Shown piece by piece: positions 517 to 40,304 of a stretch of DNA of 57,138 nt; the first letter of the stretch is position 1, and each line of letters starts with the position of its first letter. The DNA lies in the NCBI GenBank assembly GCA_046351535.1, contig JAXLYG010000023.1:128001-185138 (forward strand). The letters are read 5' to 3'. This DNA is from Polyangiales bacterium. GTDB taxonomy: Bacteria > Myxococcota_A > Polyangia > Polyangiales > Ga0077539. The position numbers were made by a program, and so were the translations under genes. Below the pieces are notes generated by a model. That model was not told the origin of the DNA and did no database searches. It worked only from the letters and a program-made list of their open reading frames with translations.

Positions 517-1206
517 TCACGCCGTGACCGGGAGCCGCCTCCGTCCGCCGCGCGCGGCCGTCTCGGCGACGAGCGCCGCGGCGACCTCTGCGACCGCGGG
601 GAGGAGGCGCGCCTCGGGGTCCGTGGCGAGTCGCGCGGCGTAGACCGAGATCCAGCGGGCCGTGTGCGACACGGCGAAGTCTGCCGCATCGACGACGGCG
701 AGACGCTGCGCTTCGAAGTCACCGCGATCGAGCGCGGCGACCTCACGCGCGGCGAGCTCCGCCAGAAACGCGAGCTCGCACCCCAGGTGATCGGGGAGCT
801 CGGGCGCATCGAGGGCGAAGCCCGCGACGGCGTACGCGCGCTTCACGGCGTCGCTCGACGCGCCCAGGAGGAGCCCTCCGACGACGCCCTCGTCGAGCTC
901 CCGCGCGTCGCAGTAGACCGACTCGAAGGGCGGCTTGTAGCGAGGGCCCGGGATGGCCACGAGGTCGAAGAACTCGCGTCGCGTCTCGTCACCGAAGCGC
1001 AGCGCGGCGATCGCCGAGAGCGGCGCGGCGACGCGATCACCGAGGAACTCCACGAGCACGTCTCTCGCGTCGGGGTCTTGAAGCGCCGCGACGACGGAGG
1101 CTTCGGGCGCGGCGAGAAAGAGCCCCGAGAGGAGCTTGTAGAGGTCACGACGAAGCGCCGCGACGGAGGCTTCTTCGGTGGGGTCGCGCGACGAGGCTTC
1201 GGTCAC
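517..1206 (-). CDS. TorD/DmsD-family redox-enzyme maturation chaperone
   Basis: C-terminal 229 aa of the ORF 517..1752. LYKLLSGLFLAAP and ELPDHLGCELAFLAELA resemble TorD-family chaperones. The proposed GTG start at 1206 overlaps the stop of the upstream ferredoxin gene (GTGA). The N-terminal part of the long ORF is a shadow frame of the ferredoxin gene. Confidence 0.55.
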   Translation of the reverse strand: MTEASSRDPTEEASVAALRRDLYKLLSGLFLAAPEASVVAALQDPDARDVLVEFLGDRVAAPLSAIAALRFGDETRREFFDLVAIPGPRYKPPFESVYCDARELDEGVVGGLLLGASSDAVKRAYAVAGFALDAPELPDHLGCELAFLAELAAREVAALDRGDFEAQRLAVVDAADFAVSHTARWISVYAARLATDPEARLLPAVAEVAAALVAETAARGGRRRLPVTA

Positions 1207-1766
1207 GGACGAATGAATCGGATCGAGGGGTTGGTGAGCGCGGGGTCCGCGAAGCCCGTGGGCGGCTCCGACGAGCCCGGGGTGAAGTCTCGCGTGAACT
1301 GGAGCGCGCCCGTGGGGCACGTCGAGACGCACGCGGGCGCGAGGTTCTCGGCGAGGCGATGCGCGCAGCCGGTACACTTCTCGACCTTGCCCGAGAGGTC
1401 GTTGAACTGCACCGAGCCGTAGGGGCACGCCCACTCGCAGTAGCGGCAGCCGATGCAGGTCGCGTTGTTGATCTGCACGAGGCCCGTGGCGGCGTCCTTG
1501 GTGATGGCCGCGACGGGGCACGCGGGCAGGCACGCGGGCGACGCGCAGTGGTTGCAGGCCGACGTGACGAACACCTTCGAGAGCGATGGAAAGGCGCCGC
1601 TCTCGACGGTGAGCACCGCGCGGTAGTTCACCTGGATGGGGTGCGTGTTGCGGAAGACGAGCGGCGAGGTCGCGGGCTCGGTGTTCATCTCCGACTTGCA
1701 GGCGACCGTGCAGGCGTTGCAGCCGACGCAGCGGCGGAGGTCTACGATCCAACCGAACTGAGCCAT
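1203..1766 (-). CDS. four-cluster 4Fe-4S ferredoxin subunit of a Mo-bisPGD oxidoreductase (PsrB/TtrB/DmsB-like)
   Basis: Four Cys clusters: CVGCNACTVAC, CNHCASPACLPACP, CIGCRYCEWACP and CTGC...CVSTCP. 187 aa with no signal peptide, consistent with hitchhiking on the TAT-exported catalytic subunit. It lies directly downstream of the catalytic subunit. Confidence 0.85.
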   Translation of the reverse strand: MAQFGWIVDLRRCVGCNACTVACKSEMNTEPATSPLVFRNTHPIQVNYRAVLTVESGAFPSLSKVFVTSACNHCASPACLPACPVAAITKDAATGLVQINNATCIGCRYCEWACPYGSVQFNDLSGKVEKCTGCAHRLAENLAPACVSTCPTGALQFTRDFTPGSSEPPTGFADPALTNPSIRFIRP

Positions 1767-1784
1767 GGTGGTCCGTCCTCCTGA

Positions 1785-4700
1785 TCAGCGCGTCACGACG
1801 GGCTCGATGCGAACCCAGGTGTCATTGAACGAAGCGCTCCCGCCGATGGGGTCCTGGAGCGTGACGTCTCCCGAGAAGTCGTCGAGGCGCATCACGGGGT
1901 TGGCCGTGATGCCCGCGCCGCGCGAGGGATCGAAGGCCGTCGCGCGTCCCGCGACGGTGTGCGCCTTCGCGCCGCCCTCCCAGTGACCGAAGCCGGTGGA
2001 GACGGCCACGACCCCGGGGCGCAGGCCCTTGATGACCTTCGCGAAGCCCACGACGCCGACGGGGTTCGACGCCGAGGTGATGCGCACGCGGTCGCCGGTC
2101 TCGACCCCCGCGGTGCGCGCGTCGGGCTCCGAGAGCTCGACGAAGTTCTTGGGCTGGATGCCCATGAGCCACGGGCTCGTGTGCGTTCGCGACTCGGCGT
2201 GCAGCGCGGGCGTGTACGTCACGAGCTGGAGCGGGAAGGCCGCGTCTCGCACGGGCGTCCCGTCGAGGTGGCGCTTCACGTCGTAGTGCGCGACGCCGCG
2301 GTACTTGCGACCCGTCACCGGGTTCACCGTCGTCGCGAGCTTCGGGACGTAGAAGTGCAGCACCGAGCCGTGCTTGTTGTTGAGCAGCGCGGCGTTGGTG
2401 GTGTCGTAGCCGCTGTTGAGCGCCGCGAAGGCGCCGCCGCGCGCCATGATGTCGCCCGCCGCGACGGTGGCGCCGTTGAGGGCCGTGCCCACGTTGCGCG
2501 CGAGGTTGGCGAACTGGTGGCGGTAGAAGTCCCACGCGCGGTCGAGGTTCACGCCCGCGCCGAGCGCGTTGGCGCCCACGCCGGGGAAGGTCGGCGAGAT
2601 CGCCTTCGCGAGCCCGATGAGAATGTCACCGTGCATCTTCGTGTCGGGCAGGAGCGGCGTGTACGCGTTGCGCGCCGAGGGGTCGAAGCTCCAGCGCCCC
2701 GTGGCGCCCACGGTGGTGCCGTCGAAGGCGCCGACCACGGGCTGCTGAATGGGCGTCTGCTTCGTCGAGATGGCCGCGCTCTGCCCGGGGAATCCCCACG
2801 ATTCCAGGTACGTCGCGTCGGGGAGCACGTAGTCGGCCCACGTCGCGACCTCGCCGAACACGGGGCTGATCGAGACGAGCAGCGGCAGCGCGGTCTCGTT
2901 CGAGACCGTGCGCTCCCACACCGACTTGCCGCCGGGGACCGCGTAGGGCCAGTCGGTCCACGCGGTGATGAGCGCCTTGATCGCGTACGGATACCCCTGC
3001 GCGATCGACGGGACGAGCTCCTGATAGTTGCCCTTCGCCGCGAAGGGGAACCACTGCCTCGGCGCCGGATAGCCTCGGAAATACGACTTGTCCGCGGTGT
3101 AGTCCGCGCCCGCGCGATCGATCCTCGGCCCCACGGGCGTCACGCCGCCGGTGACCGCGGCCGTGTTCACGCCGCCCGTCGCGTTGACCTCGGCCCAGCC
3201 TCCGCCGCCGCGCGAGAGACCGCCCGCGTAGTCGACGTTGCCGATCATCCAGTTGAGCGCCATCACCGCGAGCTGCGTGTACGTGCCGTTGGTGTGCTGC
3301 ACGGCGCCGCGGTACGCCCACGCCGACGCGCGCCGCCCCGACGAGGTGAGCTCCGTCGCGAGCTGCGAGATCACCGCCGCGCTCACGCCCGCCGCCGTGG
3401 CGTACTGATCGAGCGTGTATTCGAAGACCGCCGCGCGGTAGATCGCGAAGGCCGACCTGCAACGGATGCCGTTGACGGTCACGTAGTCGGCGCCCGTGTC
3501 GACGGGCTCGAGGGTGCCCACGACGGCCGTCGCGGTGCCGCCCGTGGGCGCGTTGATCTGCACCTCGACGGGCACGCCATCGCTCGACCGGATGCACACG
3601 GGATGAGCGGGGTTGACCACGCCCGTGAGGCCCGCCTCGGCGGGCGCGAGGAGCTTGCCCTCGTTGGGGTGTCCCGCCTCGACGATGACGAGCCAGGTCG
3701 CGTCGGTGTAGCAGGGCTCGCTCGCCGCCGTGGCCGCGGCCTTGTTGGCGTTGCGGAGGAAGGCCACGTTGTGCCGCGCGCCAGCGATCATCGCGCGGGC
3801 GATGCCGAGCGCGAGGGCCGCGTCGCCGCCGGGCTTGATGGGCACCCAGAGGTCGGCCTTCGCGGCGCTGTTCGAGAAGCGCGGATCGACCACGACGATG
3901 CGGCCCATGCCGCCCGTGCGACGCGGGTCGCGCATGTCGGTGGTCTTGCGCGCGAGGGCGAGCATCGGCGGCGACGACTCGACGGGGTTGGCGCCGAAGA
4001 CGAGCATGTAGGCGGCGCGGTCCATGTCGGTCTTGAGCTCGCTCAGACCGGGGGTCCCGTTGACGTGCTCGTAGGTCGCGAGCTGCGTCCCGACCTGCGC
4101 GCTGCCCTCGATGATCGAGGCGTCGTCGATGTCGTAGTTGGCGGTGCCGTAGCCCGACCTGAAGATCCGCTCGGCGAGGGATTTGTCGACGCCGCGGCCG
4201 GGGCAGTAGACGAGCCCGTTGGCGATCTTGCCGAGGTCGGCGTTGGCGGGGTCGATGTCTCGCGTCACGCGCTCGGCGAAGGGGATGAGCGCGTTGATGC
4301 GCGCGGCGATCTCGGTGAAGGCCTGGTCCCAGGTGATGACCTCCCAGCGCCCCGAGCCGCGCGCGCCGGCGCGGCGGAGCGGGTGCTGGATGCGGTACGG
4401 GTCATAGAGCGTCTGCACGCCGGCCTGGCCGCGGGGGCAGAGGCGCCCGAACTCGTTGCGAGAGTCCGTCGGCGTGCGCGTGAACGCGAGGCGCTCGTCG
4501 TCGCCGCGGTTGTTGGGGTGATACGGGTTGCCGTCGATCTTCACGACCTGACCCGCGCGGAGCTTCGCCTTGATGCCGCAGCGGCTCGGGCAGATGCGAC
4601 AGGTCGAGTGGAGGTAGAGCACCTCGGCGTCGGAGCTCGGCGGATCGGGGTCGGCGAGCACCTCGCGCGCCTTGAGCACCACCGGCGTCGCGGCCGCGGC

Positions 4701-4790
4701 GGCGCAGAGGAGGCCCGCGGCCTTCATGAACTGTCTGCGGCTTACGCCGCCTTCCGGGGTGCCGGGGCCCGTGTTGTTCGATCCGTCCAT
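1785..4790 (-). CDS. molybdopterin (Mo-bisPGD) oxidoreductase catalytic subunit with TAT signal (TtrA/PsrA-like, about 1000 aa)
   Basis: The chosen ATG at 4790 gives MDGSNN...SRRQFMKAAGLLCAAAAA, a twin-arginine signal. It is followed by the N-terminal FeS motif CRICPSRC...C. The long ORF has molybdopterin oxidoreductase character, and the upstream in-frame extension to 4949 is Arg/Thr-rich junk. Confidence 0.8.
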   Translation of the reverse strand: MDGSNNTGPGTPEGGVSRRQFMKAAGLLCAAAAATPVVLKAREVLADPDPPSSDAEVLYLHSTCRICPSRCGIKAKLRAGQVVKIDGNPYHPNNRGDDERLAFTRTPTDSRNEFGRLCPRGQAGVQTLYDPYRIQHPLRRAGARGSGRWEVITWDQAFTEIAARINALIPFAERVTRDIDPANADLGKIANGLVYCPGRGVDKSLAERIFRSGYGTANYDIDDASIIEGSAQVGTQLATYEHVNGTPGLSELKTDMDRAAYMLVFGANPVESSPPMLALARKTTDMRDPRRTGGMGRIVVVDPRFSNSAAKADLWVPIKPGGDAALALGIARAMIAGARHNVAFLRNANKAAATAASEPCYTDATWLVIVEAGHPNEGKLLAPAEAGLTGVVNPAHPVCIRSSDGVPVEVQINAPTGGTATAVVGTLEPVDTGADYVTVNGIRCRSAFAIYRAAVFEYTLDQYATAAGVSAAVISQLATELTSSGRRASAWAYRGAVQHTNGTYTQLAVMALNWMIGNVDYAGGLSRGGGGWAEVNATGGVNTAAVTGGVTPVGPRIDRAGADYTADKSYFRGYPAPRQWFPFAAKGNYQELVPSIAQGYPYAIKALITAWTDWPYAVPGGKSVWERTVSNETALPLLVSISPVFGEVATWADYVLPDATYLESWGFPGQSAAISTKQTPIQQPVVGAFDGTTVGATGRWSFDPSARNAYTPLLPDTKMHGDILIGLAKAISPTFPGVGANALGAGVNLDRAWDFYRHQFANLARNVGTALNGATVAAGDIMARGGAFAALNSGYDTTNAALLNNKHGSVLHFYVPKLATTVNPVTGRKYRGVAHYDVKRHLDGTPVRDAAFPLQLVTYTPALHAESRTHTSPWLMGIQPKNFVELSEPDARTAGVETGDRVRITSASNPVGVVGFAKVIKGLRPGVVAVSTGFGHWEGGAKAHTVAGRATAFDPSRGAGITANPVMRLDDFSGDVTLQDPIGGSASFNDTWVRIEPVVTR

Positions 4791-4818
4791 CTCGATTGCT
4801 CCGTTACCCACTGTGCTC

Positions 4819-5418
4819 TCAAGGGAGGTAGTAGTCCCAGCGCCCGTCGCGGTGGCATCCCGCGCAGTACTGCGTCGGCACCTGTCGCCGCAGGCCCGCC
4901 GCCGAGTGATCGCCGCTGAAGTCGACGCCGCCGCGGTGGCAGAACGCACAGTCCTCGTTGCGGGGCGTGCCTCGCCAGGTGCCCAGGTAGGGCAGCATCC
5001 GGCGGTGGATCTCCTGCACCCTGGGGTCGAGGGTGGTGCGATTGAGGATGTCCTGGTGACAGTGGAGGCAGTTGGCGTTGTAGCGGGTCGACTCGGGGTT
5101 GTGGATCGCCGTGAGGTTCAGCAGCGACACGTCGAGGCTCGGATGACAGCTCTGGCAGACCGCGCGCGGATCGGGCCTGCCCGCGTCATCGAGGACGACC
5201 GCGTCGGGCGACACATCGGGCGTCGCGCCGTCGGGCGTGTCGGTGGGGGTCACCGCGTCGGCGGGCACATCGACCGATGAATCGAGACCGGGCCCCGCGG
5301 GCCCACGCGGACCGGGAGGTCCCGCAGGTCCGACCGGCCCCTCACACCCGGCGAACATCGCCACCGCCAGAGGGAGCACGAGAATGACAAACTCCCTCTT
5401 CGAGCAAGCACCGGGCAT
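4819..5418 (-). CDS. tetraheme c-type cytochrome lipoprotein with collagen-like Gly-Pro linker
   Basis: Four CxxCH motifs: CQSCH, CLHCH, CAFCH and CAGCH. Signal peptide with lipobox (LAVAMFAGC) from the internal ATG at 5418, followed by GPAGPPGPRGPAGPG. It sits immediately upstream of the Mo enzyme genes on the same strand. Confidence 0.75.
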   Translation of the reverse strand: MPGACSKREFVILVLPLAVAMFAGCEGPVGPAGPPGPRGPAGPGLDSSVDVPADAVTPTDTPDGATPDVSPDAVVLDDAGRPDPRAVCQSCHPSLDVSLLNLTAIHNPESTRYNANCLHCHQDILNRTTLDPRVQEIHRRMLPYLGTWRGTPRNEDCAFCHRGGVDFSGDHSAAGLRRQVPTQYCAGCHRDGRWDYYLP

Positions 5419-5662
5419 GGTCCTCGACCTCCGTCGCTGTTCCGCGTCTGCCAACGCAGAACGGTCGCGACAAAGCACGCACCATACCCGTCATCCCCCG
5501 ATCCCCCGCCCGTTCCCCAACGGGCGAAAAGTCAGGGACTATGACCTTGCGCAGTCCGCGCGCACGCACCGCACGCACGCACAAGGCGCGCGAACGCGCT
5601 GCAACGATCGCGGGACAGTCCGCCACGTGGCGTGTTAGCGCTCTCGTTCACGAGGTGAATGA

Positions 5663-6724
5663 ATGAGGTTCGATCCGTCACGCGCCCGTGAGCGCGTCGA
5701 GAAATTCTGGTCGCTCAACGCCGAGTTCGGCCTGGAGCACAACGCCTATCGCGTCTACCTGAACGAGATCGTGAGCGACCGCTACGTGCTCGTGAACGGG
5801 CTCCAGCTCCTGCGCGACGAGCTCCAGCTCGCGGGCGAGCGCGACCTCGGCGACGACGTGATCGCGTGCGGCGCCGACCTCTCGATCCCCAGCGTGATGA
5901 CCACGCTGGCGCACACCAACTGCGGCGACCGCATCCACCAGGGCGAGGCGACGACCTCGTACGAGCAGGTCGTGGCGTCGCGCTTCGCCTGCATGTCCGA
6001 GATCGGCGAGCACAAGCTCGAGGCCTTCTCGCCCACGGGCGGCGGCACCGACGACGGCCACACGCTCGCGCACGTCACCGTGGCGCACGCCCTCGACGCG
6101 CCCATCCGCAAGCGGCTCTACGAGGGCAACGCGTCGACCTTCGTGCTCGTCAACATCGACCTCAAGACCCACGTGGGGCGCCTCGACGGCGAGAACGGCA
6201 AGCTCATCATCGGCCGCACGCAGGAGTCGAAGTGGCGCGAGCCCCGCACCGCGTGTGGCGCCGTCGTCGGGACCGTCAAGCACTACAACCCCGACAACGG
6301 CGTGCACCGGCGCATCCGCGAAGACCTCGGCGAGGCGAACTTCGAGCTCCTCTCGACGAAGGGCGTCCACAGCAAGGACGGCGTCGACATCACCGCCGCC
6401 GTGGCCGCGTCGATCGTCGCGATCCAGGGGATGCTCAACACCGCGAAGGCCCTCGAGACCGAGCTCGACGAGCGCGGCGTCGGGCACCTCACGGCCTCGA
6501 CCACCGTGAACCGCCCCCACATGGACGACACGATCATCTACCTCGCGCGCGCCACCGTGTTCAACGGCGAGACCCGCGTGCAGGGCTTCGGCACCGACGC
6601 CTCGAAGTACTCGGGGCGCACCGTGGAGCACCGCGGCGACAAGCGCCTCCTGCTCCTCTACGACCGCCTCGACTCGGGTGAGCACGAGATCCGGTCGAGC
6701 ACCTACGCGCCGCGTCCGGCCTGA
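5663..6724 (+). CDS. hypothetical cytoplasmic protein (353 aa)
   Basis: Long ORF with balanced amino-acid composition (W, F, Y, H, K, N all present). Strong SD GAGGTG 7 nt before the ATG. I recognise no domain. Confidence 0.5.
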   Translation: MRFDPSRARERVEKFWSLNAEFGLEHNAYRVYLNEIVSDRYVLVNGLQLLRDELQLAGERDLGDDVIACGADLSIPSVMTTLAHTNCGDRIHQGEATTSYEQVVASRFACMSEIGEHKLEAFSPTGGGTDDGHTLAHVTVAHALDAPIRKRLYEGNASTFVLVNIDLKTHVGRLDGENGKLIIGRTQESKWREPRTACGAVVGTVKHYNPDNGVHRRIREDLGEANFELLSTKGVHSKDGVDITAAVAASIVAIQGMLNTAKALETELDERGVGHLTASTTVNRPHMDDTIIYLARATVFNGETRVQGFGTDASKYSGRTVEHRGDKRLLLLYDRLDSGEHEIRSSTYAPRPA

Positions 6725-6735
6725 CGACGCCCCGG

Positions 6736-7842
6736 CTACGCGCCCCACGCGTCGCGCATCAGCACGCGCTCGAGCTTGGCCACGGCGGGCTCCAGCGACT
6801 CGGGGTCGAGGCCGCCGGAGCGCGCCACGGCGGTGAGCAGAAAGCGCTGCTCGCCCGCGCTGAAGATCCGGTGCGCGATCACGCGTCCGCCGAGGTCGAG
6901 CACGCGCACGCCGACGGGCGCGGGCTCGCCGTTCTCGACCACGCGATCGGCCACGATGAGGAGCTGCGACCAGACGCCCGCCAGCACGTCGGGTCGCTCG
7001 GAGCCGTCGCTCGCCGCCAGCGGCAGCCCCGAGTCATCGCTCAGCACCAGCGCGCTCAGGCTGCCCGCGGTCGCGATCGCGTTGAGGAGCCGCGGGAGCT
7101 CGTCGCGCGTCCCGCGGCCGAGGTCGATGTGCTGGATGGCCTGCGCCACGCGCTCTTTTTCGAGGAGCGGCGAGAGGATCCGCTCGACCTCGCGCAGGTC
7201 GCTGCGCCCCGTCTCTCGCACCTGCGCCACCGTCGCAGCGAGGCGCTTGAGCTCGCTCTGCGTCTGCGCGCTGAGCGCGTCGGAGCGCTTCACCTGCCCC
7301 ATCGCGGCGTTGAGCTCGGCCTCGGCGAAGGCGAGCCTGTCGCGCAGCTCGCGCACCTGCTTGAGCTCGCCCTGCGCCTGCGCGTTGAGCGCGTCGGCCC
7401 GCTGGAGCTGCGTCCGCACCGACTCGAGCTCGGCCTCGGCCCGCGCGACGCGCTCTCGGAGCTCCTGCGCGCGATCGGCCTGCGACCGCGCGGCCTCGAC
7501 CTCGGCCTCGGCCCGCGCGACGCGCTCTCGGAGCTCCTGCGCCTCGCGGCGCGCGCCGCCCTGCTCGGTCTCGAACTCTCGCGTGCGCCCGTGGACGCGC
7601 TCGAGCTCCGCCATCGCGAGCCCCGCGTTGACGGCCTCGCGCTTCGTGGCCTCCTGCGCCTCGGCGAGGGCGGCCTCGAGGCGCTGCGCGTCGGCGCGCG
7701 CGTGGCCCCGATCGGACTGGGCTGCCGAGAGCTCGGCGCGTAGCGCGTCGCGGGCCTCGAGGGCGCGACGGACGCCGACCATGTAACCGCCGAGCAGGAA
7801 GAGCCCGCACGCAAGCGCGACAAGAGTGAGTGAGAGAATCAC
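6736..7842 (-). CDS. membrane-anchored coiled-coil protein with internal repeats and roadblock/LC7-like C-terminal region
   Basis: N-terminal TM helix (ILSLTLVALACGLFLLGGYMVGV). Long Ala/Glu/Arg coiled coil with repeated ELRERVARAEAE modules; an imperfect DNA direct repeat (one mismatch over about 60 bp) lies in 7425..7550. C-terminal 130 aa (ALVLSDDSGLPLAAS...VRVLDLGGRVIAHRIF) resembles a roadblock fold. Last gene of a tightly packed minus-strand operon. Confidence 0.6.
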   Translation of the reverse strand: MILSLTLVALACGLFLLGGYMVGVRRALEARDALRAELSAAQSDRGHARADAQRLEAALAEAQEATKREAVNAGLAMAELERVHGRTREFETEQGGARREAQELRERVARAEAEVEAARSQADRAQELRERVARAEAELESVRTQLQRADALNAQAQGELKQVRELRDRLAFAEAELNAAMGQVKRSDALSAQTQSELKRLAATVAQVRETGRSDLREVERILSPLLEKERVAQAIQHIDLGRGTRDELPRLLNAIATAGSLSALVLSDDSGLPLAASDGSERPDVLAGVWSQLLIVADRVVENGEPAPVGVRVLDLGGRVIAHRIFSAGEQRFLLTAVARSGGLDPESLEPAVAKLERVLMRDAWGA

Positions 7843-8630
7843 GGGTCGACGACCTCCTCGGAGACACCTGCACAGGGCGCGACACCGCGCACGCGGACCT
7901 CGACCCGTCGAAGCGCGTCGGAGTCCTCCGCGCCCTCGACCTCCGCCGTGAACGCGCCCACGCCGCCGACGGTCACCTTCGTCGCGGGAACGCCCGCGCG
8001 ACGGATCGAGACCGCCACCGCCGCCGCGCGACGGACGCTGAGCGCGTGGTTGTCACGGTCGGTCCCGAGGGGGTCGGCGTAGCCGAGCACGAGCACGTTC
8101 GCGCGAGGGTTTCGCGCGAGGTATTCCCGCAGCGGGACGAAGTGAACCGCGAGCCTCGGCGGCGTCGACCACGACCCTCGACGAAAGCGAATCGACCACC
8201 GCGGCGGACATCGCGGATCGATGGGCCCCGAAGGCGCCGCGTCCGCCGACGCTACGAACGCGTGCGCCGTCGCGGGCGCCTCAGCGACCGTCGCGCTCGC
8301 GCCACCCGCGTCGACCGTCGCCACCGCGGGCGCGCCCGGCGACGCGGCGTCGGGCGACGTCGACGGCGCCGGCGCGGCAGGCTCCGCGGTCGTCGGAGAC
8401 GCGGGCGTCGGAGGCGCGGTCGTCGAAGACGCGATCGACGGCGCGGTCGTCGGTGGCGGCGCGACGGGCGCCGTGACGCGGAGCGCGGGCGGCGCGGGTT
8501 CGGCCCGTTGCGCGGCGGGAAACTGAAGCGCGCCGGTGACCGCGAGGCCCGTCGCCACGACGAAGATCGCGACGGTGACGCCGGGCGGCGTTCGCTCCCA
8601 CGGGAGCGAGTGGTGGAGCGCGGCGGTCAT
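7839..8630 (-). CDS. OmpA/MotB-like peptidoglycan-binding protein with N-terminal TM helix and Pro/Ala/Thr-rich linker
   Basis: The internal ATG at 8630 overlaps the stop of the upstream regulator gene (ATGA). TM helix VTVAIFVVATGLAVTGAL, then a PT-rich linker. C-terminus NVLVLGYADPLGTDRDNHALSVRRAAAV is an OmpA_C-like motif. The upstream part of the 462-aa ORF is a shadow frame. Confidence 0.65.
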   Translation of the reverse strand: MTAALHHSLPWERTPPGVTVAIFVVATGLAVTGALQFPAAQRAEPAPPALRVTAPVAPPPTTAPSIASSTTAPPTPASPTTAEPAAPAPSTSPDAASPGAPAVATVDAGGASATVAEAPATAHAFVASADAAPSGPIDPRCPPRWSIRFRRGSWSTPPRLAVHFVPLREYLARNPRANVLVLGYADPLGTDRDNHALSVRRAAAVAVSIRRAGVPATKVTVGGVGAFTAEVEGAEDSDALRRVEVRVRGVAPCAGVSEEVVDP

Positions 8631-9709
8631 GTTCCGAATCCCATCGTGCGGAGCCTCGCGAGGTTGGCCGTCAGGCTCGGCGACGCGCCCACGCGGCTCG
8701 CAGCCTCGAAGGCCTCGTAGGCGTCCTGGTAGCGTCGATCGAGGAGCGCCTCGACGCCCTTCGCGTAGAGCACTTCGAAGCTCAGCGAGCGCGTGGCCGA
8801 GGGCGGCGCCTGCTCGGGCGCGATGGCGCGCGGCGCGGGCGTGATGGGCCTGGACCCCGGCGTCTCTCGGAGCATCGGCCCGGGCTCGACGGTGCGCGGG
8901 GTGACGGGCTTCGGCGGCGCGGGCTCGGACTGAATCGGATACGGCATCGGACGCGCGGGCGTCGGGCGCGAGGGCGCCGGCCTCGACTGCGGGGGCCGCG
9001 AACCGACCACGCGACCGAGCTCCGCGAAGGCGAACTCCTCGCCCTCGCCCTGGACCTTGACCTCGTCTTGACGGCGGAGGCTGTCGAGGAGGAGCGCCTC
9101 GCAGCTCCCCGTGAGCGTGCGCGGGATCTCGACCCCCATGGGGTGGGCGCCGACGGTGACCCCGGTGGCCGCGACGAGCCGCGAGAAGGCCTCGACGCCC
9201 TGCCCGCCCTCGTCGCGCGCGTGCCACGCCTCGCCGCGGTGGATCACCACCTCGCCGAGCTGCTTGCCGTCGCGCGAGACGTCGAGCCGCACGGACCGTC
9301 GGCCCATGCTCGCGAGCTGGATGTAGTCCGCGAGGGTGAAGGGCGCGGCGACGTCGCGGAGCCCGAGCTGCTCGACGACGACCTCGCGGAGGTTGGCGAG
9401 CGCGACGGGCTTCTCGAGCACCACGATCCCGGGGCGCTGCGGCACCTTGAAGCGCCGCAGGTACGCCGACGCGATGACGATGGGGACGCGCGCGCCGATG
9501 CGGTCGAGCTCCGCGATGACCTCAAGGCCCGAGCGATCGGGGAGGTTCAGGTCGGTGATGAGGAGCTGCGGCACCGTCGCGCTGATGATGGCGTTGGCCT
9601 CGTCGACGGAGCCCGCCGCGAGCACCGACACACCGCTGAGCTTCGAGAGCCCGCGCACCATCGAGGCGCGCAGCATCGGCTCATCTTCGACGACGAGGAC
9701 GGTGGGCAT
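8627..9709 (-). CDS. response regulator: receiver domain + DUF4388 (PilZ-like) + Pro-rich linker + short helical C-terminus
   Basis: Receiver with LVVEDEP, ITDLNLPD and KPV. The middle region FTLADYIQLASMGRRSVRLDVSRDGKQLGEVVI matches DUF4388. A proline-rich segment follows. Confidence 0.75.
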   Translation of the reverse strand: MPTVLVVEDEPMLRASMVRGLSKLSGVSVLAAGSVDEANAIISATVPQLLITDLNLPDRSGLEVIAELDRIGARVPIVIASAYLRRFKVPQRPGIVVLEKPVALANLREVVVEQLGLRDVAAPFTLADYIQLASMGRRSVRLDVSRDGKQLGEVVIHRGEAWHARDEGGQGVEAFSRLVAATGVTVGAHPMGVEIPRTLTGSCEALLLDSLRRQDEVKVQGEGEEFAFAELGRVVGSRPPQSRPAPSRPTPARPMPYPIQSEPAPPKPVTPRTVEPGPMLRETPGSRPITPAPRAIAPEQAPPSATRSLSFEVLYAKGVEALLDRRYQDAYEAFEAASRVGASPSLTANLARLRTMGFGT

Positions 9710-9716
9710 CAGCGTT

Positions 9717-10481
9717 TCACTCGGGGATCTCGATGGGGTCGGTCATGAGGTCGGTGCCGCAGGGCAGCGCGTCGGCCCAGTCGATGAAGCGCTTGACCAG
9801 CGCGCGCCCGCGGAACATCGCCCCGTGCTGCGGCGCGATGATCTCGATGTCGAGGCGACGGGCGGCCGCGGCCCAGCGCTTCATCGCAGCGTTGTTGGCC
9901 ATGTACCGCCGGTGAAAACCCTCCATGAACTGGAGGTGCGCGTCGAAGTCGGCGACCTCGACGGCCTCGGTCCCCACGGAGGCCCCGAGGTCACCCGAGT
10001 AGAGGACCTTCGAAGTCGGGTCATAGACCTGGAAGTTGCCCGGCGAGTGGAGGAAGTGCGCGGGCAGGATGACGAGCTTCGCGCCGCCGAGCATGAGCAC
10101 CATGCCCTTGTCGGGGATGGGCTTGAGGCGCTCGACCACGAGGTGATCGAGGCCGAAGTGGGGCACGAAGCGGGTCCACAGGGCCGAGATGTACGCGTCG
10201 GCGTCGGTGGTCATGAGCCAGCCGTTGGAGGCCGCCACGATGTCGGGGTCCTGATGCGAGAGGAAGATGTACTTCAGCTTCGCGCTCTGGAGCTGCTGGC
10301 TCGTGGCCGCGAGGACGCGCGAATAGACCTTGTGCCCGCCGGGGTCGAGGATCATCCCCTCGCTGCCGTGGATGATGAGGTGCTGGTTGGCCTGCACGGC
10401 CACGCCGCCCGCGCTGAAGTCGGGCAGGAGGAGGTTGCGATGGGCTCCGCTGGCGTAGAGCGTGGTGACTTGATTCGACAT
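9717..10481 (-). CDS. MBL-fold metallo-hydrolase / ODP-like di-metal protein
   Basis: FLSHQDPD metal-binding motif and H/D ligands through the sequence; 254 aa. Lies between the roadblock gene and the response regulator with gaps of 8 to 25 nt. Confidence 0.7.
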   Translation of the reverse strand: MSNQVTTLYASGAHRNLLLPDFSAGGVAVQANQHLIIHGSEGMILDPGGHKVYSRVLAATSQQLQSAKLKYIFLSHQDPDIVAASNGWLMTTDADAYISALWTRFVPHFGLDHLVVERLKPIPDKGMVLMLGGAKLVILPAHFLHSPGNFQVYDPTSKVLYSGDLGASVGTEAVEVADFDAHLQFMEGFHRRYMANNAAMKRWAAAARRLDIEIIAPQHGAMFRGRALVKRFIDWADALPCGTDLMTDPIEIPE

Positions 10482-10505
10482 GGTCGGTTGCCTCTTCGCC
10501 CTCTC

Positions 10506-10871
10506 TCAGAGCACCTTGCGGACGTCTTCGATGGCGCGCCGCACATCGAGGAACAGCAGGCCCAGCTTGGCGCTCTTGCTCGCGAGCGCGAGGAGCAGCG
10601 TGCCCGAGCTCGAGCTCATCATCACGGCGTAGCCCTCGGTGCCGCGGACGAGCACCTCCTGCACGTCGCCGCGCGAGAGCTCCGTCGCGGCGCGCGTGCC
10701 GAGCGAGAGGAGCGTCGCGCTCATGGCGCCGACGCGGGCCTCGTCGACGTGCTGCGGCAGCGCGCTCGCGATGATGAGCCCGTCCTCCGAGATGAGCGCG
10801 CAGGCCTCGACGTCGGGCGACGAGCTCTGCAGCGAGCGCAGGATCCGGTTCAGTTGATCGACTCTCGACAT
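10506..10871 (-). CDS. roadblock/LC7 (MglB-like) domain protein
   Basis: 121 aa from the internal ATG at 10871: MSRVDQLNRILRSLQSSSPDVEACALISEDGLIIAS...GYAVMM...LLLALASKSAKLGLLFLDVRRA, the classic roadblock pattern. It starts 5 nt after the kinase stop. Confidence 0.7.
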   Translation of the reverse strand: MSRVDQLNRILRSLQSSSPDVEACALISEDGLIIASALPQHVDEARVGAMSATLLSLGTRAATELSRGDVQEVLVRGTEGYAVMMSSSSGTLLLALASKSAKLGLLFLDVRRAIEDVRKVL

Positions 10872-10875
10872 GACT

Positions 10876-11901
10876 TCAATCTCTCGGGGGAACGAGGGGA
10901 ATTCGCACGAGCACGGTGGTCCCCACTCCCGGCTCACTGGTGATCGTAAGGCTGCCCTGACCTCGCTCGGCGAGCTGTCGGCAGATCGCGAGCCCGATCC
11001 CCGAGCCGTTGGGCTTGCTCGTGTAGAAGAGCTCGGTGCAGCGCTCGAGCTCGTCGGGCGACATCCCCCGCCCCGTGTCGAGCACCGAGAGTTCGAACGC
11101 GTCTTCCTTCACGCCCGCCGAGACCACGACCTGATCGCCGGGCCTGCACGCGTCGATGGCGTTCCGCACGAGGTTGAACACCACGCCCTTGACCGCGGCG
11201 CGGTCGAGCAGGAGCAGCGGCATCGCCTCGACGGCGATCCGGAGCGACACGCCCACGGCGCGCGCGCTCGACGCGAGCACCTTGCAGGCCTCCTCGACGG
11301 CGCTGTCGATGGCCTCGGGCGTGATGCCGTGCACGACCTGGTTGAGCCCGCCGATGCCCTGGAGCCCGAGCCCCAGCCGACGCAGCTCCCAGAGCACCGC
11401 GTGGAGGTCTTGCTGGAGCCCGTCGGGCGCCTCTTCGACCAGCACCTCGAGCGTGGTGGTCACCGCGGCGAGCGGGTTTCGAAGCTCGTGCAGCAGCGAC
11501 GGGAGCACCTCTCCCACCACCGCGAGCTGAAGGAGCCTGTCGCGCTGCGTGCGGATCTCCTGCACGCCGTCGATCTGCTGATAGAGCACCGCGGTGAGGT
11601 CTTCGCCGTCGGCGCTCTTCCACCCCGACAGGGAGTACCCCAGGGTCCGCCGTCGGCCCGACGCCTCCGTGAGCGAGAGCTCGCCGCGCCGCTCGCGATT
11701 GCGAACGCCCTCGCGGAGCTGCTCCATCGGCGCGAGCAGCGCGCTCACGGGCATCCCTTCGAGCCCGTCGCCCGCGGGGCCGTGGAACGTGCTCGCGAAG
11801 CGATTCGCGTAGCGAACGATCCCGGCCGCGTCGACCACGACGACGCCCGCAGGCATGTGCTCCATCGCCTGTTGGGCGATCGGTGATGACCGGGTCTCCA
11901 T
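10876..11901 (-). CDS. PAS-domain sensor histidine kinase (cytoplasmic)
   Basis: ATG at 11901 (METRSSPIAQQAMEHMPAGVVVVDAAGIVRYAN..., a PAS fold). H-box LHELRNPLAAV, N-box NLVRNAIDA, G1 DTGRGM, G2 GSGIGLAI. The upstream 100 codons of the long ORF overlap the divergent gene and look non-coding. Confidence 0.75.
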   Translation of the reverse strand: METRSSPIAQQAMEHMPAGVVVVDAAGIVRYANRFASTFHGPAGDGLEGMPVSALLAPMEQLREGVRNRERRGELSLTEASGRRRTLGYSLSGWKSADGEDLTAVLYQQIDGVQEIRTQRDRLLQLAVVGEVLPSLLHELRNPLAAVTTTLEVLVEEAPDGLQQDLHAVLWELRRLGLGLQGIGGLNQVVHGITPEAIDSAVEEACKVLASSARAVGVSLRIAVEAMPLLLLDRAAVKGVVFNLVRNAIDACRPGDQVVVSAGVKEDAFELSVLDTGRGMSPDELERCTELFYTSKPNGSGIGLAICRQLAERGQGSLTITSEPGVGTTVLVRIPLVPPRD

Positions 11902-36413: not shown

Positions 36414-38528
36414 TCAAGCCAGTCCGAGCGCGCCGACGACCACGTCGATGGCCTTGATCGCGACGAAGGGCGCGACGACGCCACCCGCGCCGTAGACCAC
36501 GAGGTTCCGCCGCAAGAGGGCCGCGGCGCCGAGGGGGCGATACGCGACGCCGCGCAGCGCCAGGGGGATCAGCGCCACGATCACGAGCGCGTTGAAGATC
36601 ACCGCCGAGAGGATCGCGCTCTGCGGCGAGCCGAGGCGCATCACGTTGAGCGCCCAGAAGTGCGACGAGTGCGCGTCGCCGCGCGTCGTCTGAAAGGCCA
36701 CGAGGCCCGTGAACATCGCGGGCAGGATCGAGAAGTACTTCGCGACGTCGTTGGAGACCGAGAAGGTCGTGAGCGCGCCGCGCGTCATCAGGAGCTGCTT
36801 GCCGATCTCGACGACCTCGATGAGCTTGGTCGGGTCGCTGTCGAGGTCGACCATGTTGCCGGCCTCCTTCGCGGCCTGCGTGCCGGTGTTCATCGCGACG
36901 CCCACGTCGGCGCGCGCGAGGGCCGGCGCGTCGTTGGTGCCGTCGCCCGTCATCGCGACGAGGCGCCCGCCCTCCTGCATCTTGTGGATGTAGGCCCGCA
37001 TGGCCTCGGGGGTGGCCTCGGCGAGGTAGTCGTCGACGCCCGCCTCGGCGGCGATCGACTTCGCGGTGAGGGGGTTGTCGCCCGTCACCATCACGGTCTT
37101 GATGCCCATCGCGCGGAGGCGTTCGAAGCGCTCGCGCATGCCGGGCTTCACCGTGTCTTTGAGGTAGACCACGCCGAGGAGGCGCGGGCCGTCGGCCACG
37201 ACGAGGGGCGTTCCGCCGACATTGGCGACGCGGTCGACGAGGCCCTGGAGGTCCGCGGGGATGTCGGCGTTGGCGCGTCCGCCGACGTGCGAGAGCACCG
37301 CGTCGCTGGCGCCCTTTCGAAGCACGCGGTCGCCCGCGTCGATGCCGCTCATGCGGGTGCGCGCGGTGAAGGGCACGAACACGCTGCCCGCAGGGAGCGA
37401 CGGCGTCACGCCCATGCGCTCGGCGAGCGCGACGATGCTCCGCCCCTCGGGGGTCTCATCGGGGAGCGACGAGAGCGCCGCCACCGCCGCGAGCTCGCGC
37501 ACCTCGACGCCCTTCACGGGGAGAAACTCCGCCGCCTGGCGGTTCCCGTAGGTGATGGTGCCGGTCTTGTCGAGCATGAGCACGTCGATGTCGCCCGCGG
37601 CCTCGACGGCGCGACCCGAGGTGGCGAGCACGTTGTGCTGCACGAGCCTGTCCATGCCCGCGATGCCGATGGCCGAGAGCAGGCCGCCGATGGTCGTGGG
37701 GATGAGGCACACGAGCAGCGCGACGAGGGCGCCCACGCCGAGCGATCCGCCGAAGAAGCGCGCGAGCGCGTCGAGCGTGACCGTCGCCACGAGGAAGATC
37801 AGCGTGAGGCCCGCGAGGAGGATCGTGAGGGCGATCTCGTTGGGCGTCTTCTGCCGCTCGGAGCCCTCGACGAGGGCGATCATCCGGTCGACGAAGCCGC
37901 CGCCGGGGTCCTGCATCACCTCGATCTTGAGCCAGTCGCTCGTGACGCGCGTGCCGCCGGTGACCGCGCTGCGATCGCCGCCGGCCTCGCGCACGACGGG
38001 TGCGCTCTCGCCCGTGATGGCGCTCTCGTCGACGGAGGCGATGCCCTCGATGATCTCTCCGTCGGCGGGGATGAGCCCTCCGGCGGCCACGTACACGACG
38101 TCGCCGCGCTTGAGGTCCGCGGCGCTCACCTCGCCGCCCGTCGTGGGGTCGGGGCCGGCCGCGAGCGGGGTCTCGTCGCCCGCGTGACGGATGCGCCGCG
38201 CGGTGGTGGTCGTGCGCATCTTGCGGAGCGTGGCGGCCTGGGCCTTTCCGCGTCCCTCGGCCATGGCCTCGGCGAAGTTGGCGAACAGCACCGTGAACCA
38301 CAGCCACGCGATGAGCTGCGCGTTGAAGCGCACGTCGACGTGGGCGCCGCGCGCGAGGTCGTAGACGAAGAGCGTCGTGACGAGGAGGCTCCCCACCTCG
38401 ACGACGAACATCACGGGGTTCTTCGCCATGACGCGGGGGTCGAGCTTTCGAAGCGCGTCGACGAGGGCGGAGCGGACGATCTTCGCGTCCCAGAGCGACG
38501 CGGAGCGGTGTACCGGATGGGTTGTCAT
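36414..38528 (-). CDS. kdpB: potassium-transporting P-type ATPase subunit B
   Basis: 704 aa. Phosphorylation motif DKTGTIT and hinge [13 protein letters not shown] (GDGxND). TM helices typical of KdpB. Confidence 0.9.
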
Positions 38529-38537
38529 GGGTGGTGC

Positions 38538-40304
38538 CTATGCGTGACCGAGCATGAAGTGCTCGACGATCGGACCGAGCGAGAGGGCCGGGAAGAAGGT
38601 CAGCGCGCCCACCACGACGACCACGCCGACGAAGAGCCCGACGAAGAGCGCGCCGTCGACGGGAAAGGTCCCGGGCCCCGCGGGCACGAGGCGCTTCTTC
38701 GCCATGTTCCCCGCGATGGCGAGGGCCGCGACGATGAGCGGAAAGCGCCCGACGAACATCCCGAGGGCGAGCGTGAGCGAGTAGAAGACCGGGTGCGCGT
38801 CGGAGTACGCCGTGAGCCCCGCGAAGGCGCTGCCGTTGTTGCCCGCCGCCGAGCTGAACGCGTAGAGCATCTCCGAGAGCCCGTGCGGGTGCGGGTGCCA
38901 CGCGGGGCCCGGCGCGCCCTGCGACGCGACGTTCAAGACGCCCGCGCGCCCCGCCTCGGTGAGCGCCGCGACCGCCGTCAGCCCGAGGATCGCGAGCGCC
39001 GACACGAGGATGTAGATCGACGCGAAGCGCATGTCGCGGCTGTCGATCTTCTTGCCGAGGTACTCGGGCGTACGGCCCACCATGAGGCCCGCGAGAAAGA
39101 CCGCGATGATCACGTACACGAGGGCGCCGTAGAGCCCCGCGCCGACGCCGCCGAAGACCACCTCGCCGAGCTGGATGTTGAGCATCGGGATGAGCCCGCC
39201 GAGGGGCGTGAAGCTGTCGTGCATCCCGTTGACCGCGCCGCACGACGCGTCGGTGGTGACCGCGGCGAACAGGGCCGTGTCGGCGATGCCGAAGCGCAGC
39301 TCCTTGCCCTCCATGTTGCCGCCGGGCGAGAGGGCGCTCGCGACCTGGTCGACGCCGAGGTGCGAGAGCAGGGGATTGCCCTGCTGTTCGAAGCGCGCGA
39401 GGAGGGCGATGCCCGCGATCGAGAGGATCGCCATCGCGACGAAGAGCGCGGCGCCGTGGCGTCGGTTCTTGAGCGTCTCGCCGAGCGTCACGCAGAGCGC
39501 CGCGGGGAGCGCGAAGATCGAGAAGACCTCGACGAGGTTCGTGAGCGGCGAGGGGTTCTCCCAGGGGTGCGCGCTGTTGGCGTTGAAGAAGCCGCCGCCG
39601 TTGGTGCCGAGCATCTTGATGGCCTCCTGCGAGGCCACGGGGCCGCGGACGATCGACTGCGCGGCGCCGTCGAGCGTGGTCCAGTGCGCGGCGCCCGCCC
39701 ACGTCTGCACGACGCCCTGCGAGACCAGGAACACCGCGTAGACGACGCTGAGCGGCACGAGCACGTAGAGGTGCGCGCGCACGAGGTCGACCCAGAAGTT
39801 GCCGAGCTTGTCGGTCTCGCGGCGCGCGATTCCGCGCAGGAGCGCGATGGCGACGCAGAGCCCGACGGCCGCGGAGAAGAAGTTCTGCGACGTGAGCGCG
39901 ACGGACTGCGACGCGAGGCTCATCGTCGTCTCGCCGCCGTAGCTCTGCCAGTTGGTGTTGGTCGTGAAGCTCGTCGCGGTGTTGAACGCCAGCCACGGCG
40001 CCACGGCCCCGAGGCGCGAGGGGTTCATCGGCAGCGCCGACTGCGCGCGCATCAACACGTAGGTGATGAGCTGCGTGAAGGCCGAGAAGCCGAGGAGCGC
40101 GAGGGCGTACTGCTTCCAGTCGTGCTCGTCGGCGGGGTCGATGCCCGCGGCGCGGTAGAGGGCGCGCTCGACGGGGCCAAAGAGGCGCGCGCCGAGGTGG
40201 CGCTCCCCCGCGAACACGCGGGCGATGTAGCGGCCGAGGGGCACCGCGACGGCGGCGAGGAGGGCGAAGTACACGGCGATGACGGCCCACATGCGCGGGG
40301 TCAT
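38538..40304 (-). CDS. kdpA: potassium-transporting ATPase subunit A
   Basis: 588 aa polytopic membrane protein with KdpA selectivity-region motifs (TNGGGFFNANSAHPWENP, TAAGNNGSAF). Sits between kdpF and kdpB. Confidence 0.9.
   Translation of the reverse strand: MTPRMWAVIAVYFALLAAVAVPLGRYIARVFAGERHLGARLFGPVERALYRAAGIDPADEHDWKQYALALLGFSAFTQLITYVLMRAQSALPMNPSRLGAVAPWLAFNTATSFTTNTNWQSYGGETTMSLASQSVALTSQNFFSAAVGLCVAIALLRGIARRETDKLGNFWVDLVRAHLYVLVPLSVVYAVFLVSQGVVQTWAGAAHWTTLDGAAQSIVRGPVASQEAIKMLGTNGGGFFNANSAHPWENPSPLTNLVEVFSIFALPAALCVTLGETLKNRRHGAALFVAMAILSIAGIALLARFEQQGNPLLSHLGVDQVASALSPGGNMEGKELRFGIADTALFAAVTTDASCGAVNGMHDSFTPLGGLIPMLNIQLGEVVFGGVGAGLYGALVYVIIAVFLAGLMVGRTPEYLGKKIDSRDMRFASIYILVSALAILGLTAVAALTEAGRAGVLNVASQGAPGPAWHPHPHGLSEMLYAFSSAAGNNGSAFAGLTAYSDAHPVFYSLTLALGMFVGRFPLIVAALAIAGNMAKKRLVPAGPGTFPVDGALFVGLFVGVVVVVGALTFFPALSLGPIVEHFMLGHA

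Follow-up and report, generated by a model that had tools for sequence, protein, structure and literature searches.

A collagen-tethered cytochrome c operon of a Polyangiales bacterium with an Arr/Ttr-type molybdopterin subunit devoid of the metal-ligand cysteine

The stretch of DNA analysed here (57,138 nucleotides of contig JAXLYG010000023.1 from a Polyangiales bacterium, 71% G+C; in the following the window) carries four co-directional minus-strand genes at positions 517-5418, which encode a cytochrome c, a large subunit of the MopB or dimethyl sulfoxide (DMSO) reductase superfamily, a ferredoxin and a chaperone. An earlier note on the same DNA had listed these genes in this order, and all of them were found where it had placed them. 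It also took the MopB protein for a working catalytic subunit with a molybdenum bis(pyranopterin guanine dinucleotide) (Mo-bisPGD) cofactor. Here, the cysteine that ligates the metal in related enzymes is replaced by isoleucine, and the residues corresponding to substrate ligands of arsenate reductase ArrA are lost as well. The operon is thus described together with its relatives, which either retain this cysteine (Cys-bearing) or lack it (Cys-less); loci and protein clusters of the comparison are designated by L and P numbers, respectively.

The operon and its tethered cytochrome

The first gene (4819-5418; ORF, translation and Pfam evidence) codes for a putative lipoprotein, a tetraheme cytochrome c of 199 amino acids (aa), and is preceded by a GGAGG ribosome-binding site 8 nt ahead of its ATG. 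The signal peptide comprises an n-region, an h-region and a lipobox FAGC of the signal peptidase II type, with lipidation predicted at Cys25. Directly after this cysteine follows GPVGPAGPPGPRGPAGPG, and the collagen-like Gly-X-Y run GCEGPVGPAGPPGPRGPA, beginning at the lipobox, occupies 5296-5349 according to translation and homologue alignment. An acidic, Pro-rich linker of about 45 aa then leads to a compact four-heme domain of about 113 aa with four CxxCH motifs. No other Gly-X-Y run of at least five triplets is found in any open reading frame (ORF) of the window with high G+C content at third codon positions (GC3). That the run is a product of chance can be dismissed since 5-8 triplets stand right after the lipobox cysteine in 12/12 aligned cytochrome homologues. 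The lipoprotein signal, the four CxxCH motifs and the collagen-like spacer described in the earlier note are thereby borne out.

In Pfam, the cytochrome matches PF22113 (MtrC/MtrF domain II/IV) with 38.6 bits against a gathering score of 30, while the same scan gave no NapC/NirT match. Besides Cys25 and the four CxxCH motifs, His106, His119, His138 and Met141 are invariant across the alignment of 12 homologues. These extra residues would suit a set of three bis-His hemes plus a single His-Met heme, and such ligands would likewise be compatible with an electron wire rather than a high-potential acceptor. The cytochrome family is narrow, with 13 protein clusters among 5.8 billion, and the AlphaFold2 model obtained from the 12-sequence alignment was too poor for use (predicted local distance difference test, pLDDT, 43; predicted template modelling score 0.28). 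A much longer tether occurs in a Cys-bearing Myxococcales relative (L010 4876-5577), where about 29 Gly-X-Y triplets follow the lipobox, a length sufficient for a real triple helix; shorter runs are found in L076, L077, L081 and L084.

The second gene (1785-4790; Pfam, NCBIfam and PDB matches) encodes the MopB subunit of 1001 aa, for which export by twin-arginine translocation (TAT) is predicted. Its true start is the ATG at 4790, as supported by gene callers and a ribosome-binding site, and the ORF listed at 1785-4949 (1054 aa, from an upstream GTG) was rejected as too long at the 5' end. The twin-arginine motif SRRQFMK is located at residues 17-23 (4722-4742; read from the translation, TIGR01409 with 21.4 bits against a cut-off of 16.7). 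Next comes a ferredoxin of 187 aa (1203-1766; Fer4_11, 93 bits), which lacks a signal peptide and has its 16 Cys arranged in four cluster motifs. Its matches to the DmsB, ArrB and TtrB models all lie under the cut-offs (TtrB, NF011569, 110 bits versus 416; ArrB, NF041715, 111.4 bits versus 450). The last gene (517-1206, GTG start) encodes a NarJ/TorD-family chaperone of 229 aa, the start codon of which overlaps the TGA stop of the ferredoxin gene as GTGA at 1203-1206. It matches PF02613 with 56 bits (gathering score 22.2) and the type II chaperone model TIGR03482 at E 7e-11, under its cut-off, as are the matches to all specific equivalog models. The 3' end of the operon lies 9 bp from a convergent DUF4336 gene.

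A membrane anchor of the NrfD/PsrC/TtrC type is not encoded in the cluster, as the earlier note had stated. A tblastn search with a DsrP/NrfD protein had no match at E<1, neither in the window nor in contigs L001, L005 and L006. L001 is an identical contig from an activated-sludge metagenome reaching 7 kb past the left edge of the window, where the earlier note had considered that an anchor gene might be hidden; this extension contains the DUF4336 gene, an ADP-forming acyl-CoA synthetase and unrelated genes, and no NrfD-type gene was found in either the 57 kb window or these 7 kb. A survey of membrane ORFs agrees with this result. The only polytopic membrane ORFs of the window encode KdpB (36414-38528) and KdpA (38538-40304, minus strand) of a potassium-transporting ATPase, which is unrelated to the operon.

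The same architecture extends well beyond this genome. Among 81 non-redundant related loci, surveyed for features within 10 kb, a homologous cytochrome gene is found directly upstream in 49/81 loci of many phyla, while an NrfD homologue occurs in 9/81 and, within the cytochrome-linked set, in only 3/49. The order of cytochrome, MopB, ferredoxin and chaperone genes recurs in these 49 loci, and the proposal of a periplasmic AB-type complex without membrane anchor but with a dedicated cytochrome c is upheld. Separately, a module that combines a 190-aa cytochrome c with a 292-aa ferredoxin and NrfD lies within a few kb of the MopB operon in L007 (1826-4576) and L011 (101-2656). The NrfD protein of the Cys-bearing locus L007 passes the DsrP cut-off (406 versus 350 bits), and L011 is a Cys-less locus. 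These DsrJOP-like modules are candidates for a separately encoded quinone-coupling partner.

Loss of the molybdenum ligand

By domain content, the large subunit is a genuine member of the MopB superfamily, since the Fe4S4, molybdopterin and dinucleotide-binding domains are all matched above gathering scores (PF04879 with 47.4 bits versus 22.7, PF00384 with 68.2 versus 24 and PF01568 with 44.6 versus 26.8). Among the curated NCBIfam models, TtrA (NF011567) scores best with 355 bits against a cut-off of 1750, followed by PhsA (202 bits), ArrA (NF041714, 154.7 bits, cut-off 1600) and QrcB (121 bits, E 3e-35, cut-off 440), and no curated model cut-off is reached. The AioA model TIGR02693 gave no match, and no Rieske gene is found in the operon. 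The best solved-structure matches by sequence are ArrA (6cz7, E 1.5e-36) and PsrA (2vpw). In agreement with this, an AlphaFold2 model of pLDDT 70 has ArrA 6cz7 as best fold match (E 1e-34), with ArrA, PcrA, Nap and Psr all at E<1e-29. The placement is thus one by NCBIfam scores and PDB matches, not by a tree with characterised enzymes. In protein databases, the subunit is 100% identical to cluster P0001, which is labelled molybdopterin-dependent oxidoreductase, and belongs to a large family of MopB relatives with 950-1030 aa and 33-72% identity, all of them uncharacterised.

In 79 Cys-bearing sequences of this family, the active-site motif DHTSICExSHH is nearly invariant. The window reads DDASIIEGSAQ instead, within the remodelled loop NYDIDDASIIEGSAQVGT at residues 218-235 (4086-4139; sequence and family alignment). 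Position 227, occupied by the loop cysteine in the family, is Ile (ATC, 4110-4112), and Asp223, Ala224 and Gln232 replace the family residues His, Thr and His. In a profile search of solved structures, the family cysteine was aligned with PsrA Cys173 (counted from W160) and with ArrA chain index 153, which becomes Cys193 with an offset of +40; by the same offset, family positions H223, T224 and H232 correspond to ArrA His189, Ser190 and Lys198. Both PsrA Cys173 and ArrA Cys193 are Mo ligands. None of the residues serving as amino-acid ligand of Mo or W (Cys, Sec, Ser or Asp) is therefore present at this position of the window protein, and none of the ArrA residues Cys193, His189, Ser190 and Lys198 has its equivalent there, whereas the Cys-bearing relatives have C, H, T and H. 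According to PMC10654088, used here as a secondary source on ArrA, His189, Ser190 and Lys198 hydrogen-bond the substrate, and the first iron-sulfur cluster, FS0, is ligated by Cys61, Cys64, Cys68 and Cys96. An assembly artefact is unlikely because Ile227 is seen in three independent assemblies (window, L005 and L008) as well as in 12 member sequences of P0001. The earlier note had itself suggested that the Mo-ligand residue be inspected, and its assumption of a functional Mo-bisPGD subunit is not supported by this inspection.

The rest of the protein is much better preserved. The [4Fe-4S] cluster FS0 would be held by Cys64, Cys67, Cys71 and Cys118, the last followed by Pro119-Arg120 (4437-4601; alignment); these Cys columns are invariant in the family alignment and match the ArrA segment SSCPRQH. 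When 123 family-conserved columns were defined (each at least 93% conserved in the 79 Cys-bearing sequences), the window protein kept 113 of them, including FS0, DPR, YRGAVQHTNG, ADYVLPD and Arg199. Only six of the 123, namely K120, H223, T224, C227, H232 and F274, are lost in 9/9 Cys-less sequences. Of these, K120R does no harm, since the fourth FS0 cysteine of ArrA is likewise part of a C-P-R sequence.

With these data, the canonical alternative can be judged, in which the operon would encode a TtrA-like, Cys-ligated reductase fed by periplasmic cytochromes, as presumed in the earlier note. A length of about 1000 aa and TtrA as best curated model do justify the likeness to TtrA, at least in size, and the TAT signal, FS0, the four-cluster partner and the chaperone are all present. 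Membership, however, does not follow from a score of one fifth of the cut-off (and 110 versus 416 bits for TtrB), the ligand Cys has given way to Ile227 with the flanking His, Thr and His gone, neither TtrC nor TtrRS is encoded, and the Cys-bearing relatives are tied to arsenic sensors rather than tetrathionate regulators. We regard this alternative as highly improbable. The window MopB probably no longer performs the ancestral Cys-ligated oxyanion chemistry.

Clade history, selection and family context

The Cys-less proteins, all from Myxococcota or 'Deltaproteobacteria' metagenome-assembled genomes (MAGs), form a monophyletic clade in 93/100 bootstraps of a neighbour-joining MopB tree from which the active-site columns had been removed, with the Cys-bearing P0002/L006 as its sister (100/100). 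Within this clade, residue 227 is Ile in the window, L008 and L005/P0004, Arg in P0005, P0006 and L011/P0011, Ala in P0009, His in P0012 and P0017, and Asp in L031. Monophyly combined with a varying residue 227 suggests that the ligand Cys was lost only once and that the position has drifted since. Position 223 is acidic in 7/9 and position 229 is Gly in 8/9 Cys-less sequences. Deeper members additionally lose residues of the pterin motifs (Y493, R494, H499, N501, D323 and R868), and the window copy is the least degenerate of all. In P0005 (L089 4194-7175), FS0 is shortened to C-x-C-x3-C (STCACGGRCG) with Val after the fourth Cys instead of Lys/Arg, which implies that in some lineages even the first cluster has begun to degenerate.

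Independently of this clade, the family has lost the ligand Cys a second time, in L044 (3992-6916), L045, L046, L052 and L078, where the motif reads DDTSIRQSSYR and Arg occupies the ligand position in 5/5 loci. These genes belong to ferredoxin-NrfD-MopB operons of Deltaproteobacteria/Syntrophaceae MAGs. Together with the three Arg-bearing Myxococcota lineages, the alignment hints at a recurrent replacement of His by Asp and of Cys by Arg.

Despite the lost ligand, the four-gene operon is intact in the window, L008, L011, L031, L088 and L090, with unrelated flanks; the cytochrome gene (188-200 aa) comes first and is followed by those for MopB, the ferredoxin (187 aa) and the chaperone. The chaperone gene is kept in 6/7 Cys-less loci; the contig of the remaining one, L089, breaks off within the ferredoxin gene. 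An alignment of ferredoxins from three Cys-less and seven Cys-bearing loci shows all 16 Cys (16/16) to be conserved. In the scanned genome collection, each Cys-less MAG has only one family member, and no Cys-bearing back-up copy was visible.

Selection on the operon was assessed by a simple Nei-Gojobori estimate of the ratio of nonsynonymous to synonymous substitution rates (dN/dS). Between the window and its 93% orthologue in L008, dN/dS amounts to 0.247 for MopB, 0.359 for the cytochrome, 0.325 for the chaperone and 0.126 for the ferredoxin, compared to 0.113 and 0.075 for the flanking DUF4336 and acyl-CoA synthetase genes of the same lineages. Protein identities in this genome pair are 93% for MopB, 86% for the cytochrome and 89% for the chaperone versus 98-99.7% in the flanks (DUF4336, the synthetase and, on the other side, a 353-aa ORF, orf353). 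For MopB, more distant Cys-less pairs gave 0.46 (window and L089) and 0.535 (L011 and L031), whereas nine Cys-bearing pairs range from 0.036 to 0.145; the ferredoxin stays at 0.13-0.20. As the ratios are raised relative to both flanks and Cys-bearing pairs, yet remain below 1, the operon is under purifying selection which is clearly relaxed except on the ferredoxin.

A raised dN/dS on MopB, cytochrome and chaperone, with dN about 5 times that of both flanks in the same genome pair, would also be expected for a decaying relic, i.e. an operon left without function after loss of its active site and on its way to a pseudogene, the remaining constraint being residual or an artefact of estimation. 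The progressive loss of conserved motifs in deeper members and a frameshift in the MopB gene of P0004/L005 fit this explanation, too. That frameshift was, however, rejected as a sign of pseudogenisation, as it is probably a sequencing error: flanking genes of the L005 assembly are fragmented as well, and the gene is intact in the sister genome L008. Moreover, all four genes persist as full-length ORFs in at least six lineages that are 54-72% identical and have different flanks, the ferredoxin retains its low dN/dS and all its cysteines, and heme motifs and lipobox are invariant. Because the four genes have stayed intact across such deep divergence with invariant electron-transfer residues, a functionless relic is quite improbable.

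Alternatively, the Cys-less protein could be a neofunctionalised enzyme with a Mo/W-bisPGD cofactor that is either ligand-free or bound by Asp223, Glu228 or Ser225 and that catalyzes another reaction, in which the cytochrome would accept or donate electrons. The 113 retained columns with the pterin motifs, Arg199 and the basic residue after FS0 speak for such an enzyme, as do the chaperone and TAT signal kept in Cys-less operons, intact ORFs with dN/dS <1 in 3/3 Cys-less pairs, the recurrent acidic residue 223 and Gly229, and the established precedent of AioA for a ligand-less Mo-bisPGD centre. On the other hand, the loop is not conserved within the clade as a shared active site would be (I/R/A/H/D at 227, with 231 and 232 equally variable), other members lose pterin motifs, MopB dN/dS is 2-10 times that of Cys-bearing relatives, and neither similarity to AioA nor a Rieske partner is found. 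A new catalytic function common to the clade is unlikely since the loop differs between subclades and members keep losing cofactor motifs; for neofunctionalisation as a whole, our expectation is low. Should the clade nevertheless prove to consist of functional Mo/W-bisPGD enzymes that work with their collagen-tethered cytochrome, with a second independently evolved AioA-style (ligand-free) or carboxylate-ligated centre derived from an Arr/Ttr-type ancestor, which we would consider rather unlikely, the DMSO reductase superfamily would gain a new reaction class.

The ancestral substrate was approached through the gene neighbourhood of the surveyed loci. An ArrX/AioX-like periplasmic binding protein is encoded in 30/81 loci, 29 of these with a histidine kinase or sigma-54 regulator, Acr3, ArsA or ArsC in 14/81, and a binding protein or ars genes in 34/81. 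The Acr3 and ArsA proteins beside relatives pass the NCBIfam cut-offs. In L007, genes for an ArrX-like protein, a histidine kinase and a sigma-54 response regulator (4769-8587) lie directly upstream of a Cys-bearing member, and the binding protein resembles the arsenate sensor ArrX (6x6b, E 1.8e-49) and, less closely, AioX (E about 1e-28); ArrX-like systems of 29 further loci are distributed among L010-L087. Since ArrX-like sensors and ars genes occur near Cys-bearing members which also possess an ArrA-like H-T-S-I-C...H-H loop, the ancestral substrate was probably an arsenic-type oxyanion. The statement in the earlier note that the substrate cannot be inferred was thus too pessimistic for the family. 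Related cases are known from the literature: TtrA, SrdA and an 'alternative arsenate reductase' are grouped in one clade (PMC10100899), arsenate-induced or ars-linked Ttr-like enzymes were reported for Pyrobaculum and Melioribacter roseus (MROS_1076; PMC5492636), and a Methanoperedens 'SreA' has arrXSR upstream (PMC13444090). Two further literature leads, SoeABC of Thioalkalivibrio and the Sb(III) oxidase NaoABC, were dismissed as unrelated, the latter being NapA-like. The parent family, members of which occur in Methylomirabilota/NC10, Nitrospinota, Planctomycetota, Acidobacteriota, Gammaproteobacteria and Myxococcota, may represent an unrecognised class of cytochrome-coupled respiratory enzymes for arsenic oxyanions.

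Two additional features of Cys-bearing loci were observed. A sigma-54-like element TGGCATGCTTGGTGC (TGGCAT-N5-GGTGC) is located at L007 8775-8789 between the regulator and cytochrome genes; no such promoter was found upstream of the window cytochrome gene, and the rest of the window has fewer matches than chance would give. Furthermore, a polyferredoxin of about 375 aa with several Fer4 domains and no visible signal peptide is encoded at L007 14335-15462, and homologues are found downstream of the chaperone gene in 25 loci. Neither the window nor any Cys-less locus with sequence beyond the chaperone gene encodes this protein. It may have been a NapF-like maturation factor that disappeared along with the active site.

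The window itself contains neither an ArrX-like gene nor an ars gene. In L008 (4592-9138) and L005 (4589-9140), the loci with 93-94% orthologues, an insertion of about 5.5 kb with arsA, acr3, arsC and orf295 separates orf353 from the cytochrome gene; orf295 has no Pfam match. The insertion is suggestive, but as it is missing from the window, it was rejected as direct evidence for a functional link of the window copy. The orf353 gene (5663-6724, plus strand, GC3 0.97) is divergent from the cytochrome gene and has no match in Pfam or NCBIfam. It is 99.7% identical in L008 and 92% in L089, where it again adjoins the Cys-less operon, and its conservation is far above that of the operon. Further upstream, three minus-strand genes (8627-10937) encode a response regulator with a DUF4388/PatA_N domain (8627-9709; syntenic in L005), an ODP-family protein of metallo-beta-lactamase fold (9717-10481) and a small ORF (10506-10937).

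Taken together, the locus can robustly be described as encoding a periplasmic Arr/Ttr-type AB complex that has a dedicated chaperone and a tethered tetraheme cytochrome but no quinol-interacting subunit, and in which the canonical active site has been erased. From what is known of the families involved, MopB would fold in the cytoplasm with the help of the NarJ/TorD-type chaperone and would be exported together with the signal-less ferredoxin through TAT. The lipid-anchored cytochrome on its Gly-X-Y and acidic linker would then act as redox partner of the MopB-ferredoxin complex, in whichever direction electrons flow. Any link to the quinone pool would have to be indirect because a quinol-oxidising NrfD-type subunit is lacking, and would run through cytochromes or a module encoded elsewhere. 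In evolutionary terms, the ancestral Cys-bearing enzyme would have acted on an arsenic-type oxyanion until a Myxococcota subclade lost the ligand Cys and the equivalents of ArrA His189, Ser190 and Lys198 once, leaving behind the electron wire of FS0, 16 ferredoxin Cys and four hemes. On balance, we lean towards the interpretation that the Arr/Ttr-type complex persists as a non-catalytic or catalytically crippled electron-transfer or redox module, comparable to QrcB and ActB.

Several points weigh against this interpretation. Nearly all pterin-binding motifs are retained in the window protein (VVVDPRFSNSAAKAD, YRGAVQHTNG, ADYVLPD, R868-T869 and GHWE), Arg199 corresponds to ArrA Arg165 by ungapped spacing, and the basic residue after FS0, the TAT signal and the chaperone are kept as well, which suggests that the protein may still receive a pterin cofactor and that its Mo site, with no ligand or with another one, could be active as in AioA. 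A soluble electron wire with neither a catalytic end nor a membrane partner also has no obvious use. As to selection, the dN/dS values are simple Nei-Gojobori estimates in 71% GC genomes, in which dS is constrained, and dS is 0.16-0.20 in the cluster compared to 0.09 in the flanks; with such unequal dS, recombination could add to the apparent acceleration. The MopB tree is a neighbour-joining, not a maximum-likelihood tree and is built without characterised TtrA, SrdA and SreA sequences, and the arsenic link is one of gene neighbourhood only and is absent from the window.

Although MopB homologues without catalytic centre and AB-type periplasmic molybdoenzymes fed by tetraheme cytochromes are already known, a monophyletic Cys-less lineage at an early stage of such a loss, with TAT signal, chaperone and most cofactor motifs retained, and a collagen-tethered lipoprotein cytochrome are new; the literature searched contained no description of the lineage, its retained maturation traits or the cytochrome. 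If the electron-transfer interpretation holds, the Cys-less operon would be an intermediate on the route that gave QrcB and ActB, and a monophyletic example of an iron-sulfur molybdoenzyme that loses its catalytic centre while keeping electron wire, export signal and chaperone. Being the least degenerate member, the window copy is the best one of the clade for biochemistry. Annotation pipelines label the protein as molybdopterin-dependent oxidoreductase, or as tetrathionate reductase subunit A in relatives, and metabolic reconstructions would thereby credit the organism with a respiratory reductase which its active site cannot support. At the same time, a widespread, uncharacterised family of cytochrome-coupled Arr/Ttr-like enzymes is exposed, for which the neighbourhood of ArrX-like, sigma-54 and Acr3-ArsA-ArsC genes makes a role in arsenic cycling directly testable.

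Comparison with known systems

By sequence and fold, the closest solved structure to the window MopB is that of ArrAB from Shewanella sp. ANA-3 (6cz7). This enzyme is likewise a soluble periplasmic AB complex without C subunit, which is fed by the membrane-attached tetraheme CymA (PMC2762525). ArrA and the window MopB share FS0 followed by C-P-R, and the Cys-bearing relatives also have the H-[ST]-S-[IV]-C-x3-H-[KH] loop in common with ArrA and are adjoined by ArrX-like sensors. In contrast, ArrA is a protein of about 850 aa versus 1001 aa in the window, the ArrA model falls far short of its cut-off, and Ile, Asp, Ala and Gln stand in the window at ArrA Cys193, His189, Ser190 and Lys198. The electron partners differ as well: CymA is a quinol dehydrogenase of the NapC/NirT type with a transmembrane helix, while the window cytochrome is a predicted lipoprotein that matches an MtrC-type domain. 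An ArrXSR sensor system is not encoded in the window, as opposed to the ArrX-like proteins of the 30 related loci.

With tetrathionate reductase TtrABC, the operon shares a large subunit of about 1000 aa, TAT signal, FS0 and four-cluster B subunit. Unlike TtrABC, it lacks a TtrC/NrfD anchor, in the place of which a cytochrome c gene is found, and TtrRS; unlike TtrA, its MopB has no Mo-ligand Cys and stays at 355 of 1750 bits. Within the family, NrfD-linked members score higher with the TtrA model (573 bits for L079 and 534 for L044) than the cytochrome-linked subgroup (355-370 bits).

The arsenite oxidase AioAB is periplasmic, has azurin or a soluble cytochrome c as its partner and is under the control of AioXSR, the sensor AioX of which is related to the ArrX-like proteins near relatives of the window operon. 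Its Mo-bisPGD centre has no amino-acid ligand, with Ala at the ligand position. AioA, however, contains a [3Fe-4S] cluster and has a Rieske partner, while FS0 and a four-cluster ferredoxin are present in the window, and no specific similarity to AioA is detectable.

A functional analogy exists with QrcB and with ActB of alternative complex III (ACIII), which have the MopB fold, have lost the catalytic Mo centre, share their operons with genes for a four-cluster ferredoxin and a multiheme cytochrome c, and serve in electron transfer. The resemblance lies in a ligand-less MopB protein encoded with these two partners and is one of function, not of membership. An NrfD-type quinone-interacting subunit is part of both Qrc and ACIII but is not encoded in the window operon. 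Conversely, we know of no NarJ/TorD chaperone gene in Qrc or ACIII operons, whereas the window operon includes such a chaperone and, unlike QrcB and ActB, its MopB keeps most of the pterin-binding motifs.

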